Origin: Squalus acanthias
Lineage: Eukaryota
NCBI GenBank assembly: GCA_030390025.1
Contig: CM059432.1
Span: forward strand, 54,314,001-54,378,000
Direction: 5' to 3'
Length of the DNA stretch: 64,000 nucleotides
The position numbers and the translations under genes are program-made. Below, one piece after another: positions 5,933 through 64,000 of this stretch (position 1 is the stretch's first letter; each line of letters opens with the position of its first letter). The notes below the pieces were generated by a model. The model ran no database searches and was not told where the DNA came from. It saw only the letters and a list, made by a program, of their open reading frames with translations.

Positions 5933-7287
5933 GCTTCTAATTTTATATTGACTGCTGCATAAACTTTTTAAATGAACACTAATAACATCTCAGTAAATAC
6001 TCAAACATGTTCCCCACTACGAGGCCTGCCTCAAGTTCATTCACCTTGTGTTCGCCTTGGATATTGTATTGAAGCTAATACAACATGAATGCCCAAGATC
6101 ATTTCCTGTAGGATTCTTATAGCCAACAGTTTTAGTTGGATTCCAAAATAGGTCTCACCAAAGGGTAGATCTGGTGGAAGGTCTCTAATCAGTATCAAAA
6201 ACATAAAGCTTTGCAGCTGTATTTTCCTGCACTATCCTGCCCCAAATTAGGTGGGATAGCAGTGGAAATAGCAAGAAAATGGGGTGTTGAAGCCTATTAC
6301 CACCTCCCTGCCCCAAGTTTAACTTCCCTCACCACCCCCGCCCACTCCCCAACTGGGACAGCCGACACATGCCACCCATCTCTTGCAAATACTAGTGGGG
6401 CTCAGGGCCTAAAGTCCCAGAGGATGTTCCTCCCATTCTCCACTCTTACCACTGCTCCACTAGAGAAAGATGAAACTTGGCCCAGGGTAGCAATGGTAAG
6501 GCCCCAAATTTTCTAAATGGAGAGAGAGGACCTAGTTGAAACCTCCTCTCTTTCTAATTTGGCTCCCATACACTTACTTTTGTGGGCCTCAGTCTCTGCT
6601 AAAGCCTACAAAGCTGATAAGTGTGTTCATCTTTGTAGCTATTCTGCCTCTTTAAGGTCCCTCTCCACCTCTTCTGGTGCTACAACGGTAGTCCCACTGC
6701 AGCACTACCTCATTCTCCTCATCGCCATTGGTGGGCTCCCTTTTGAGCAGCATGAAGCCTACTGTGCATCCCAAATTACGCCTTCCCAGGAAAATGGAAA
6801 TTCCCAGCTTGGTCTCTCGGACTGGGTATTTCAGTGTAATACCCACTCAGAGAGACTAATGTTTTATGTTGTTGATGCTGATCATAGGCTTTCCACCAGA
6901 GCTGTTTCACTATCAGTCAGGATTACAAGGCACCGCTTCAATTGAAGTTGGTAGCTACATACTTTGAATTGTATCATTTTAGGAATGTCCTAAAAGAAAA
7001 TGTGTAATTAATTTTATAGAGCATGTAGTACTACACATCACATTGCTTCACATCAACACAAAGGCCTAGATATTAACAGGGGCGGTTTACGTAGGTGGGG
7101 GCAGAGTTTAAGATGGGAAACGCGGAAATCTGGTTTGCCCTGCGTGCTGTGGAGTTTTAACTCCTGAGCATGTGTCTTTTGTCCTTGACAGGTTCCCCAC
7201 CCGGAAGTTAGCCTGACTGAGGGGCTTGGCTTCAGTCGGGCCGGTGCACTCCAGAACAGGCCGCAGGACTAGATAGGTCCAATCCAC

Positions 7288-32606: not shown

Positions 32607-32997
32607 TAAGTCTGAAACTAGAGTCTTAAACTTAAACAAAGCCAATTATATAGGTATGAGGGGCGAGTTGGCTAAGGTAGATTGGGAAATTAGATTAAAA
32701 TGTATGACGGTAGATAAGCAGTGGCAAACATTTAAAGAAATATTCCAAAATTCTCAAAGAATATACATTCCATTCAGAAATATAAACTCCATGAGAAAAG
32801 TGATCCATCTGTGGCTAACTAAAGAAGTTAAGGATAGTATTAGATTAAAAGAAGAGGCTTATAATGTTGCAAAGAATAGTAGTAAGCCTGAGGATTGGGA
32901 GAGCTTTAGAAACCAGCAAAAGATGACCAAAAAACTGATAAAAAGGGAGATTATATTGGGGAACAAGGAAATGGCAGAGACTTTAAACAAATATTTT

Positions 32998-33835
32998 GGG
33001 CTGGATTTTCAATGACCCGTGGAGTCGGGTTTGGAGTCGGAGGGGGGGGGGTTAAAGTTGCAGATTCGGGGGTCCCGACCCCATCCCGACTCCAACCAGC
33101 CTCCATGCCAGTTTCTCTGGCGGCGGGTACCCGACCTGTTCTGAGACCCGACTCCCCGAGACGGGAAGGGATTAGTGACAATTAACTGCCTGTTAACAGG
33201 TAGTTAACAGGCAGTTTTTTGCATAATCCCTATTTTAAAAAGAAAACTGTGGGCTTCCCGACAGGTGGCAACCACTCCAAGTTATCGGGGCGGGCCGTGT
33301 GTCTGCAGGGGTCGATATGTCCAGTGGGCAGGTGAGTGATGGGTGCATGTGTGCAGAGGTAAGTGTGTAAGGTAAGTGCTAAGTGTTGAAAAAAGTTTTA
33401 CTTACCTTAACTTCCTCCTGCAGGTGTCAGCCCTTCAGTTCTCGGGAGTTAGAAATCTCACTGGCACAGAAAGCAGGAAAGCCGTGGTTCTGTCAAAACC
33501 TGCAGCCTTCTGTTTTCTGTGCTGGAATGATTTCTAACTCAGCCTGAAAGGAAGGACTGAAGTTAGAAATCATATTGTGAGTGTTTGACAGCTTCACAGA
33601 GCTGTCAAACGCTGATATTTCATCTGTCAAAAGCTCTTGACAGATGAAATGTCAGTCTGTGACGTGACCTATTGCCGGGTGGCCCTTAATTGGCCTGCTG
33701 AGCCCACTGGGCGGGCTCAACAAGGTCAATCAAGGGAAAATACAGTGGGTTGGCCACATCTCGATGGAGGCGGGTTCACAAGCCAGAATGTGTGATTCCC
33801 GACCCCAACCCGACTCCAACTTCAAAATCCAGTCC
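32998..33835. mobile_element. Harbinger-type MITE inserted into CR1 ORF2
   Basis: TIR gggctggattttcaa / ttcaaaatccagtcc; TTT TSD; removing it restores LNKYF-VSVFT. Confidence 0.9.
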
Positions 33836-42770: not shown

Positions 42771-42982
42771 CCTCCTTTCTCCTCTGGTTCATAACAATGC
42801 GTTTTGAGTAAGCATGAAACTTCGTATGGAGTATACGGAACAGACTTTATTGATACACTGCCACTTCTCTTCTAGGAATGCCCACCTTGAAGAAGTTCTG
42901 CTCTTCTCTCCGACAGGATTTTCGTTTGTCGACGTTAACTCTGTTTCTCTCTCCACGGATGCTGCCTGGCCTGCTTCTTGTT

Positions 42983-43077
42983 GAGAGGTCGCACAACACC
43001 AGGTTATAGTCCAACAGTTTTATTTGAAATCACAAGCTTTCGGAGCTATCGATTTGCTCCTTCCTCAGGTGAAGTAA
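42983..43077 (-). mobile_element. 95-bp solo Penelope terminal segment with an 11-bp TSD
   Basis: Near-identical to 62491-62579; flanked by tgcttcttgtt at 42972-42982 and 43078-43088. Confidence 0.9.
43030..43072 (-). ncRNA. Minimal type I hammerhead ribozyme motif
   Basis: Minus strand: ucac-CUGAGGA-a-ggagc-aaaucgaua-gcucc-GAAA-gc-UU-guga; 4-bp stem I, 5-bp stem II, AAGCUU palindrome in place of stem III. Confidence 0.8.
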
Positions 43078-43624
43078 TGCTTCTTGTTTCCAGCATTTTC
43101 TGTTATTTCAGATTTCCAGCATCCGCAGTATTTTGCTATTGTATTAGTGTTGAAAGCCATGCTCCTTTATACACCATATTTTGACTACAACAAAGGAAAA
43201 TGTCAAAATGATGTATCTATTTCCCAAATCCTCTAAAAGCAGATTATCTATATAAATAGTTTGCAATTGTTTACCTCAGAACCATTTCCCCAACACAAGA
43301 CTTCCTGACGTAACATTTTCTAGCATCTTTGACCAATTGTTATCTGTATCTAATGGATACCTACTTCCCATGTTTATTACCCTAAACTAAACATTCACTA
43401 TTCATGGGTGATGTTATCACTAACACTTATTCCCTTACTCAAGCACTTTACATTTCAGAAAACAAGCAATACCTTCTCCTCAGACACTTCAATGTCATCC
43501 TGTTTATATCTTGGTAAGCCTGACAAGGCATTCTTTTACGACACTTCCAGGAAAACCTGTTTAACAAAAAAGTTCGACTGTTAAACTTTTAACCCCCCCC
43601 AAGATGTCCAATATACATCTCTCC

Positions 43625-55883: not shown

Positions 55884-56335
55884 AGCCAGTGGCTCAGTTG
55901 GTAGCACCCTCGCCTCTGAGTCAGAAGGTTGTGGGTTCAAGTCCCACTCCAGAGATTTGAGCACAAAAAATCTAAGCTATCAGTACAGTACTGAGGAAGT
56001 ACTGCACTGTCGGAAGTGCCGTCTTTCAGATGAGACGTTAAACCGAGGCCCCCATCTGCCCTCTCAGGTGGATGTAAAAGATCCCATGGCACTATTTCGA
56101 AGAAGAGCAGGGGTGCTCTCCCCGGTGTCCTGGCCAATATTAATCCCTCAATCAATATAACAAAAACAGATTATCTGGTCATTATCAGATTGCTGTTTGT
56201 GGGAGTTTGATGAGCGCAAATTGGCTGCTGCGTTTCCTACATTACAACAGTGACTACACTTCAAAAAGCGCTTTGGGATGTCCGGTGGTCGTGAAAGGCA
56301 CTATATACATGCAAGTCTTTCTTTCTTTTCTTTCT
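55884..56335 (+). mobile_element. Best-preserved tRNA-headed DeuSINE (SacSINE1-like)
   Basis: Pol III A box tggctcagttgg, B box ggttcaagtccc, central domain gatgtaaaagatcccatggcactatttcgaagaagagcagggg, tail ctatatacatgcaagtctttcttt. Confidence 0.9.
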
Positions 56336-56433
56336 CATAAAACTCTGTTGAAATTCTTAAACACACAGCTGCTTGTGGAGTTAACTTCCCTTTTTCATGT
56401 CAAAAGAAGACAATCCCACACATCATCAATCAA

Positions 56434-56567
56434 GGGTCATCTGACGAAGGGTCATCCACCTGAAACGTTAACTCTGTTTCTCTCTCCACAGATGCTGCCT
56501 GATGCTGAGTATTTCCAGCATTTCTGTTTTTATTTCAGATTTCCAGCATCCATAGTATTTTGCTTTT
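56434..56567 (+). mobile_element. 134-bp element with a hammerhead core and a 14-bp TSD
   Basis: acatcatcaatcaa at 56420-56433 and 56568-56581; CUGACGA..GAAACGUU at 56441-56469. Confidence 0.85.
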
Positions 56568-57687
56568 ACATCATCAATCAATGCCAGCTTGAGTTACACA
56601 ACTTCTTGCAGCTTTCAAATAAATTTTACAACTTTTACCCGATATCATACACACAGTAATAGCATTCCCCCTTTTCTCCCTTTTGGTCACACATTCCAGT
56701 ATCAACAAAATGAATAAAAATCACCTCAAAGCATTGAGTAGTACTGAAATTGGTCAGAAATTTTAAAAATACTAATTATTGACTCATGTCTGGAACCACA
56801 GACTTTCACACAATTTACAACAACCAGAATTTCACCGTGGCCATAATAAAAGTCTGATTTTCACAATTTTATAGTAATTTAACCTCAATAACGTCAATTT
56901 AATTCAGACCAATATCCTAAATTCAACACACATTCCAGCCTGAAAAAGAGGGAGGCGCCACAGCTACAGTAACATTCACACATGCTTTTTAAAAAAAAAT
57001 TAACATTCACACTGAAAACAAAAAACTGTGAATCAGTAGAAAAGAGACACGATCTTCCATTTACTTCTTTATTCCATCAAAACTATTTTATCCTTTTTCC
57101 CATAATTAATTTTCAATTACTGATGTTTTCTATTGAATCCCATTCTGTATGGATTCAAAGTTTCAAGCGGACAGTCCAAGCCTCTTTCCTCCTGCACAAT
57201 GCTGAGGAGATTTCTCTGAGCCTTTTTCAGAATTTTTTCAGTGCAAGGAAGAGAATATTTTGAATAGATTGTCTCCTTATTCTCCTTGTGACTTCAATAG
57301 GATTCTCCCCGGGCTTAATAGGTCCTACCTCCCGAGCCAGTGACTCAGGCTGCGATTTCCCCTACCTTGGTGGGTCCGGTGAGGCCGGGGTCGGTGGCGG
57401 CGTGTGACCCCGCTGCCGGCTCCAGCCCGCTGTCCCAAGTGATCTTACGCTGATTGGGCTTGTTAAGCCCGACTAGCACATTTCCCGGCCAACTGAAGGA
57501 AGCGGGTCTGATGACATCACTTGATGACGCGTCATCAGCCGGTTTCCTTAAAGGGACCATGCGCAAATTGATTTTGACAGTTATGCTGTCAGTGTTCTAC
57601 AGCGTTGAGGTGCTGCAAACACTGACAAGCACTGCACAAAGGTGCACAGCTGCACCCAGGCTCTCCATGACCCCCTCCATATGCATC

Positions 57688-62348: not shown

Positions 62349-62418
62349 GGGGGAAATATTGGGTTGCTTTGCGCCTGGGGCGCTAACAGGAGGCACGAAG
62401 CAACCCAATTTTTCCCTC
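62349..62418. mobile_element. 70-bp micro-MITE, little more than two TIRs
   Basis: gggggaaatattgggttgctt / aagcaacccaatttttccctc; ends match the right end of 48714-49322. Confidence 0.75.
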
Positions 62419-62536
62419 TTGTTCTTTGTGTCTTCTACTGTGAAGACAGACACAAAATATTTGTTTAACGTCTCTGGCATTTCCTTATTCAGAGGTCGCA
62501 CAACACCAGGTTATAGTCCAACAGTTTTATTTGAAA

Positions 62537-62574
62537 TCACAAGCTTTCGGAACTATCGCTCCTTCCTCAGGTGA
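62537..62574 (-). ncRNA. Minimal type I hammerhead ribozyme motif in the Penelope terminal region
   Basis: Minus strand: ucac-CUGAGGA-a-ggagc-gaua-guucc-GAAA-gc-UU-guga. Confidence 0.8.
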
Positions 62575-62908
62575 AGTAAATTGGATACAGAATCGTCAGA
62601 GCATATATAGATGGAAAAAAAAGCATGTGTACTTTACAATTGCAGACCAATAAATTAAATCATCCTGACTATCTGCCGAGGTGTGATAAAGTTAATTAAG
62701 TCAGCCAGGAAGGTACCACATCAAAAGACATAGCAAGATACAACTGAGACAATGAGGTGAAGTCGCAGGGGTTCTAACGTGTCAAAAGCTGCCGTCTGTA
62801 TGTAAAACGAAAAGCTTTAAAAAAAAATTTACTTTTTTACTGGGAAAATTTTTACTTTTTTACTGGGAATCACATCTGTGAACAAGCTAACGACGACTCG
62901 AGTCCGGA

Positions 62909-63827
62909 TCACGTCATGTATCGTGACATAAACCCAAGATCCCGATTGAGACCGTCTTCATGAGTGCAGAACTTGGCTATCAGTTTCTGCTCGATGATTT
63001 TGCGTTGTCGTGTGTTTCTAAGGTTGCCTTGGAGAACGCTTACCCGCAGATCCGAGGCTGAATGTCCTTGACTGCTGAAGTGTTCCCCGACTGGGAGGTA
63101 ACAATCCTGCCTGGCGATTGTTGCGCGGTGCTCGTTCATACGTTGTCTCAGTGTCTGCATGGTCTCGCCGATGTACCATGCCGCGGTGCATTCTTTCCTG
63201 CAACGTATGAGGTAGACAACGTTGGCCGAGTCACATGAGTATGTACCATGTACCTGGTGGGTAGTGTCCTCACGTGTGATGGTGGTATCTGTGTTGATGA
63301 TCTGGCATGTCTTGCAGAGTTTGCCATGGCAGGGTTGTGTGGTGTCGTGGTCGCTGTTATCCTGAAAGCTGGGTAATTTGCTGCGAACGATGGTACTTCT
63401 GAGGTTAGGCGGCTGTTTGAAGGCAAGTAGTGGAGGCGTGGGGATGGCCTTAGCGAGGTGTTTGTCGTCATCGATGACATGTTGAAGGCTGCGAAGAACA
63501 TGTCGTAGTTTCTCCGCTCCGGGGAAGTACTGGACGACGTAGGGTACCCTGTTGGTTGTGTCCCGTGTTTGCCTTCTGAGGAGGTCTATGCGATTTTTCG
63601 CTGTGGCCCGTCGGAACTGTCGATCGATGAGTCGAGCGTCATATCCCGTTCTTACGAGGGCGTTTTTCAGCGTCCGTAGGTGTCCATCGCGTTCCTCCTC
63701 GTCTGAGCAGATCCTGTGTATTCGCAGGGCTTGTCCATAGGGGATGGCTTCTTTAACATGGTTAGGGTGGAAGCTGGAGAAGTGGAGCATCGTGAGGTTG
63801 TCCGTGGGCTTGCGGTAGAGTGAAGTG
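62909..63827 (-). CDS. Penelope-like ORF, RT thumb and GIY-YIG endonuclease (partial, uninterrupted)
   Basis: TSLYRKPTD..SFHP..IPYGQALRIHRICS..CKTC..NVVYLIRC..YIGET..LRQRMNEH..HF..E..GLN. Confidence 0.9.
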
Positions 63828-64000
63828 CATCGGCGAGACCATGCAGACACTGAGACAACGTATGAACGAGCACCGCGCAACAATCGCCAGGCAGGATTGT
63901 TACCTCCCAGTCGGGGAACACTTCAGCAGTCAAGGACATTCAGCCTCGGATCTGCGGGTAAGCGTTCTCCAAGGCAACCTTAGAAACACACGACAACGCA

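Follow-up and report, generated by a model that had tools for sequence, protein, structure and literature searches.

How did a 95-bp segment carrying a hammerhead ribozyme motif come to lie, with a target-site duplication (TSD) of its own, inside another repeat of a shark genome? The insert occupies positions 42983–43077 of the window, by which we mean the whole 64,000-nt stretch of Squalus acanthias DNA analyzed here, and is flanked by perfect 11-bp direct repeats, TGCTTCTTGTT, as the sequence-only reading of this locus had proposed. The left copy (42972–42982) adjoins the element 3′ end of the insert, and the right copy lies at 43078–43088. This is the longest exact repeat at the junctions, with no extension to 12 bp, and an 11-mer of this kind would arise by chance with a probability of 3e-7, which rises to 4e-5 if 5 nt of slack is allowed per end. 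Since 4 of its 11 positions differ in the host copy at 56434, we considered whether the 11-mer had been carried in by the element. This was rejected: the 11-mer takes the place of precisely 11 positions of the host, in register, and the same spot varies among other host copies. We therefore regard it as a genuine target duplication.

The interrupted host (42932–43140, plus strand) belongs to a second hammerhead-type repeat family, also represented at 56434, of which it is the tail. Once the insert and one repeat are removed, the host and the copy at 56434 are colinear, agreeing in 91 of 106 columns, in keeping with its earlier assignment to that family, but the host copy itself has no hammerhead core; it begins at ACGTT, after the GAAA box (truncated within GAAA). 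The 56434 copy retains the core and has no stem I. It is 134 bp long (56434–56567), is bounded by a 14-bp TSD, ACATCATCAATCAA (window 56420–56581), and is the only other TSD-bounded short end of a Penelope-like element (PLE) found in the window. Just upstream of it, the repeat at 55900–56310 bears what we take to be a resemblance to a shark SINE.

The insert has a long partner in the same window. Insert positions 2–95 align with 62491–62579 (minus strand) at 93.6% identity (88 of 94 columns), the differences being one 5-nt indel in loop II and one substitution, and the near-identity to the terminal ~90 nt of a Penelope element that had been noted from the letters therefore holds. A weak match was also recorded at window position 6117 (E 0.004). 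The partner, 19.5 kb from the insert, bears an ORF and ends in the same 89 nt, made up of a hammerhead (62537–62574, predicted cut between 62541 and 62540) and a tail. Its ORF end (62909–63823, minus strand) covers a reverse transcriptase (RT) thumb region, a CX4CxxC linker and a GIY-YIG endonuclease, and is 90% identical to a Heptranchias perlo protein. Full-length homologues of the protein carry the RT domain PF00078, and the linker is kept in 10 of 10 aligned proteins; the Pfam GIY-YIG match is weak (20.4 bits vs a cut-off of 22.6). As judged from the linker motif, the partner is of Neptune/Nematis type, a feature common to both clades: the accessible text of Craig et al. (2021) describes a CX2-5CxxC linker before a C-terminal GIY-YIG domain as marking Neptune and Nematis (PMC8557442).

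Several smaller features surround the partner. It was inserted into a high-copy repeat (62425–62490), and because a target homologue exists at 32961–32998, C62490 can be assigned to the target. The sequence CTT(A/G)TT adjoins both 3′ junctions (42977–42982 and 62484–62490, n=2), possibly reflecting an endonuclease preference. The 3′ untranslated part of the partner holds a short, T-rich tandem duplication of ~24 bp at 62820–62870, ending ACTGGGA. On its 5′ side, 63825–64000 is an inverted repeat of 63001–63176 (99.4%) that runs off the window.

A descriptor scan of both strands of the 64 kb found only two hammerhead motifs, one in the insert (43030–43072, minus strand) and one at 62570, against a background of 0.017 motifs per shuffle in 60 Markov shuffles. 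The scan agrees with the minimal motif described before on the minus strand (CUGAGGA/GAAA, stems I and II, AAGCUU). Read from the sequence, the candidate ribozyme of the insert has the type I core, CUGANGA ... GAAA ... UH with stems I and II, together with an extra nucleotide 9/10.1, G10.1–C11.1 and a palindromic 15.2–16.2. Stem I is 4 bp (UCAC/GUGA, 43072–43069/43033–43030) and is followed by CUGAGGA (43068–43062) and the extra A (43061). Stem II is 5 bp (GGAGC/GCUCC, 43060–43056/43046–43042), and behind it come GAAA (43041–43038), the AGCU palindrome (43038–43035) and U17 (43034), so that the 3′ side of the core reads GAAA-GC-U-U; since position 17 is a U, the palindrome extends to AAGCUU. 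The predicted cut lies at the 43034/43033 boundary and divides the insert into 44 nt up to the cut and a 51-nt tail (42983–43033, minus strand). Calling the insert "essentially just a hammerhead" thus overstated its content, as the hammerhead accounts for only about half of it. The reported AATAAA is present in the tail (43019–43024, insert positions 54–59), no poly(A) follows it in the 95 bp and no ATG occurs within the insert.

Whether this motif could act alone is doubtful. A single minimal hammerhead showed no cleavage in vitro according to the available text of Cervera and De la Pena (2014; PMC4209133), and the lone motif of the insert would be inactive, its stem III requiring a second copy. 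Fold stability of the insert is not above that of shuffles (z 0.04), and the predicted pairing probability is 0.75 for stem II and about 0.2 for stem I. For dimers, the predicted energy of the active form is −21.7 kcal/mol vs −24.3 kcal/mol for a 6-bp form tying up A14–U17. The 5-nt gain in loop II (43047–43055) creates a palindrome, AUCGAU, which is predicted to form a competing dimer at −33.3 kcal/mol. The Rfam covariance-model check that had been suggested gave no hammerhead family match for the window (E up to 1) or for 141 nt (E up to 10). As in the metazoan PLE hammerheads of the 2014 paper, in the portion accessible to us, the insert has a type I core, a 4-bp stem I, a dispersed single copy and a link to a GIY-YIG PLE, along with the extra nucleotide 9/10.1, G10.1–C11.1 and palindromic 15.2–16.2 (PMC4209133). 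It differs from them in being of shark Neptune type, in U17, which yields AAGCUU, and in its 9-nt loop II.

To place the insert within its family, we turned to public contigs and aligned 4 of the 22 listed sets, all of them contig sets, to 62400–63749 at 80% likeness; organism A, which shares 0.62–0.65 of words, may be a relative rather than the species of the window. Behind 62551, the loose-end consensus of a sister subfamily (supported by 43, 33 and 27 contigs) reads CUGACGA and has a loop of 3 nt on an unchanged GGAGC/GCUCC stem. The variants seen thus have 3, 4 or 9 nt in loop II, and the family, as far as its sequences tell, varies at N7 and in loop II and keeps core and stem. The contrast drawn earlier with the copy at 62537 holds for loop II, which is 9 nt in the insert vs 4 nt in the partner; the G-U/G-C difference read earlier as preserved pairing is one-sided. 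It was rejected as a compensatory change for that reason and because G-C also occurs in the sister consensus; given the family variation, it is G-U at 62552 that is unusual, and the pair is no covariation.

The contigs also locate the family's 3′ end. Loose ends before 62491 occur in 89 of 1,296 partly aligned contigs in set X2 and 84 of 930 in set X5, and the flanks there are mixed (agreement 0.43–0.44); together these mark 62491 as the fixed 3′ terminus of the family. The consensus of these loose ends finishes in ...ACAAAAGTG, so longer-tailed copies exist. The tail of the insert ends at the position of 62491 plus one G, a base also present in that consensus, and the extra G at 42983 was therefore likely templated. 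A close parallel is PAc, the Poseidon element of Anolis carolinensis (Frangieh et al. 2024, PMC11167929), which likewise has a fixed 3′ end downstream of its hammerhead, longer-tail copies, an uncleaved ribozyme that is kept and a T-rich target beside the 3′ junction. PAc belongs to the Poseidon clade and has its start codon at stem II, whereas the partner here is set apart by the CX4CxxC linker.

For head-to-tail joints, the contigs give a more varied picture. Head-to-tail joints back to 62491–62501 leave from 62519, 62540, 62581, 62840 and 63302, among 15 of 17 joints listed, in alignments that at 80% likeness carry a risk of repeat artefacts. One of these, an X5 joint from 62540 to 62497, leaves exactly at the predicted hammerhead cut; this single joint is possibly a copy of cleaved RNA. 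Three of eight joints near the element end lie no more than 2 nt from the predicted cut (P = 0.014), a clustering that is only a hint, as two of the three come from organism C, whose alignments may simply end there. At 62580–62849, organism C is barely covered at all, and this gap was left out of the evidence.

We therefore favor, with a probability of roughly 0.6, the interpretation that the insert is an extremely 5′-truncated copy of a Neptune-type PLE, produced by premature termination that was possibly biased by folding. Its 3′ end coincides with the family terminus at 62491, and breakpoints vary, both in the five different joints and in the four host-family copies of the window, whose starts range from 7 nt ahead of the core to points inside the tail. 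Of the two possibilities that the sequence-only reading had left side by side, 5′ truncation is accordingly the better supported by the five joint breakpoints, while the promoter boxes or tandem arrangement of a distinct unit are not found at the locus. A fixed 3′ terminus, colinearity with the end of a GIY-YIG element, a TSD and no poly(A) are what is seen in 5′-truncated EN+ PLEs, and the literature, as far as it was accessible, treats 5′ truncation, pLTRs and tails as ordinary properties of PLEs. Truncated PLE ends that consist of a single minimal hammerhead have been on record since 2014; in the available text of that study, the hammerheads of metazoan PLEs are for the most part lone motifs belonging to truncated elements (Cervera and De la Pena, PMC4209133).

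In the sequence of events that we envisage, the element's enzyme would nick the target and prime reverse transcription there. Synthesis would start inside the tail, at a point that is fixed for the family and lies 51 nt downstream of the cut site, much as internal RT initiation has been shown in vitro for the anole element PAc (PMC11167929). The RT would then copy through the intact cut site and the whole ribozyme, ending 9 nt upstream of C3. Termination would have come prematurely, just past stem I and after 95 bases, possibly favored by RNA structure, and staggered cleavage would have given rise to the 11-bp duplication. The cut site in the insert is intact, therefore the template was not a cleavage product and was likely uncleaved or re-ligated RNA. 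The resulting copy is probably a dead end, because it lacks Pol III boxes, a poly(A) and a tandem partner, and a lone motif of this kind failed to cleave in vitro.

The position of the 5′ end fits simple truncation less well. The insert begins with TTACTTC (43071–43077, minus strand), only 5 nt outside stem I and 9 nt upstream of C3, and this heptamer matches YYANWYY, which we take to be the initiator consensus, exactly from the first base of the insert. An X5 joint in organism A, 62581-G-62491, breaks 2 nt from the 5′ boundary of the insert, and the 134-bp copy at 56434–56567 also starts 7 nt before its CUGA. These observations raise the alternative that the element RNA begins at about 62579 and that the RT, starting ~90 nt inside, runs off its 5′ end; the resulting cDNA of fixed length would normally jump templates to make a pLTR and would sometimes be integrated alone. 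We consider this run-off unlikely, though it is the most serious competitor of premature termination. Transcription start sites with an initiator and an internal promoter within the pLTR are described for Penelope in the available text of two papers (PMC2377424, PMC6765202), and the internal initiation of PAc (PMC11167929) would also suit run-off. Each of the hints from the sequences, however, is single and was noticed post hoc. YYANWYY fits 1.07% of positions and has four sites in 62491–62908, for one joint of eight to land in a 5-nt window by chance P = 0.44, and the starts of three other host-family copies lie further 3′. In PAc, moreover, the ORF starts at stem II, and the pLTR reaches ~145 nt upstream of that start (PMC11167929). 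No loose end at 62579–62581 appears among the 24 of 1,319 rows listed, whose ranking is not by count; as an argument this absence is weak, and it leaves room for a pile-up of 5′ ends at 62579.

Run-off would nevertheless have consequences of its own, among them a sharp mode of copy lengths without any independent mini-element. It is conceivable, if doubtful, that shark Neptune-type transcripts start ~9 nt upstream of the core and that, with the RT initiating internally 90 nt into the RNA, a fixed, strong-stop-like cDNA integrates by itself as ~95-bp units of ribozyme and tail or seeds tandem retrozyme-like arrays, which would provide a mechanistic route from pLTR formation to the birth of retrozymes.

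Far less probable is a self-propagating, non-autonomous mini-element, similar to a monomeric retrozyme or a SINE, with a lineage of its own, whose transcripts would be processed and then re-inserted by the PLE protein. The insert does have its own TSD and a distinct loop II, and, to judge from the joint 62581-G-62491, a ~92-nt unit of hammerhead and tail may stand in tandem elsewhere in organism A. The locus itself, however, holds a single hammerhead unit. The 5-nt loop insertion is absent among 12 of 13 indel rows listed at a 3% share, where clipped contigs could hide it, and a lineage of this kind would need diagnostic changes at high copy number. Searched with the A and B box patterns that we assume for Pol III promoters, the insert has no exact internal box of either type, and only one B-like 9-mer with 1 mismatch, which sets it apart from SINEs. 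Non-autonomous PLEs are known in Chlamydomonas, in the accessible part of PMC8557442. Non-LTR retrozymes, as far as the available texts describe them, are also short, non-coding, pLTR-related and equipped with a type I hammerhead (PMC7229834; bioRxiv 10.64898/2026.07.22.740005), and Li et al. (2026) report pLTR-derived retrozymes in tandem units, in families with units of 51–972 bp (bioRxiv 10.64898/2026.07.22.740005). By the definition given there (Cervera and de la Pena 2020, PMC7229834, in the portion available), retrozymes have at least two hammerhead units in tandem and form circular RNAs, whereas the insert locus is one unit with a minimal motif.

Least probable of all, and by our estimate highly improbable, is a solo pLTR that remained, with the original TSD, after a longer, partly tandem insertion had recombined between its two terminal repeats. 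By analogy with solo LTRs, a TSD would be expected to survive such recombination, and solo structures of this kind have been described in Adineta (PMC3846280, accessible text). The solo and inverted pLTRs of EN+ PLEs resemble the insert in their pLTR-plus-tail structure and similar TSD length, on the available parts of Arkhipova et al. (2013, PMC3846280) and Craig et al. (2021, PMC8557442). A 95-nt upstream repeat would be needed first, however, and in the same available text those Adineta solo pLTRs that are ascribed to recombination or deletion had no TSDs; Adineta pLTRs are ~180–220 bp vs the 95 bp of the insert, which has no inverted partner (PMC3846280).

Taken as a single locus, then, the insert is a further truncated PLE end, in a shark-type genome rich in repeats. 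For pLTR formation and the role of the hammerhead in PLEs, it serves mainly as a pointer. The 5′ ends of very short, TSD-bounded PLE copies record the points at which reverse transcription stopped: a peak of such ends just upstream of stem I would locate the template's 5′ end, a peak at the cut site would show cleavage in vivo, and no peak would mean ordinary truncation. Our literature search, which left most subscription papers and Repbase outside its reach, found nothing on shark genomes together with Penelope and hammerhead ribozymes, and listed no publication that deals with this shark family or with a preferred stop upstream of the hammerhead.

Summed contig depth in the tail bin is 2.9x that of the ORF in X2 and 4.5x in X5, and is 1.2–1.3x in the hammerhead bin, falling at 62580; such depth is no copy number and cannot rank the parts, and the tail is common to sister subfamilies, so the depth was not counted as evidence. 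A 26-base tail pattern had 0 matches in contigs of viral, metagenome and prokaryotic genome collections. In metagenome contigs, a profile search yielded two loci from 57 candidate stretches, both short, with 28–29% identity, and matching only the interior of the protein; these were set aside. Pieces of the partner ORF also occur in shark gene models (NOXP20-like, septin 5a, XRCC5, PPP1R12A-like and IFIT5-like), reflecting either exonisation or an annotation artefact.
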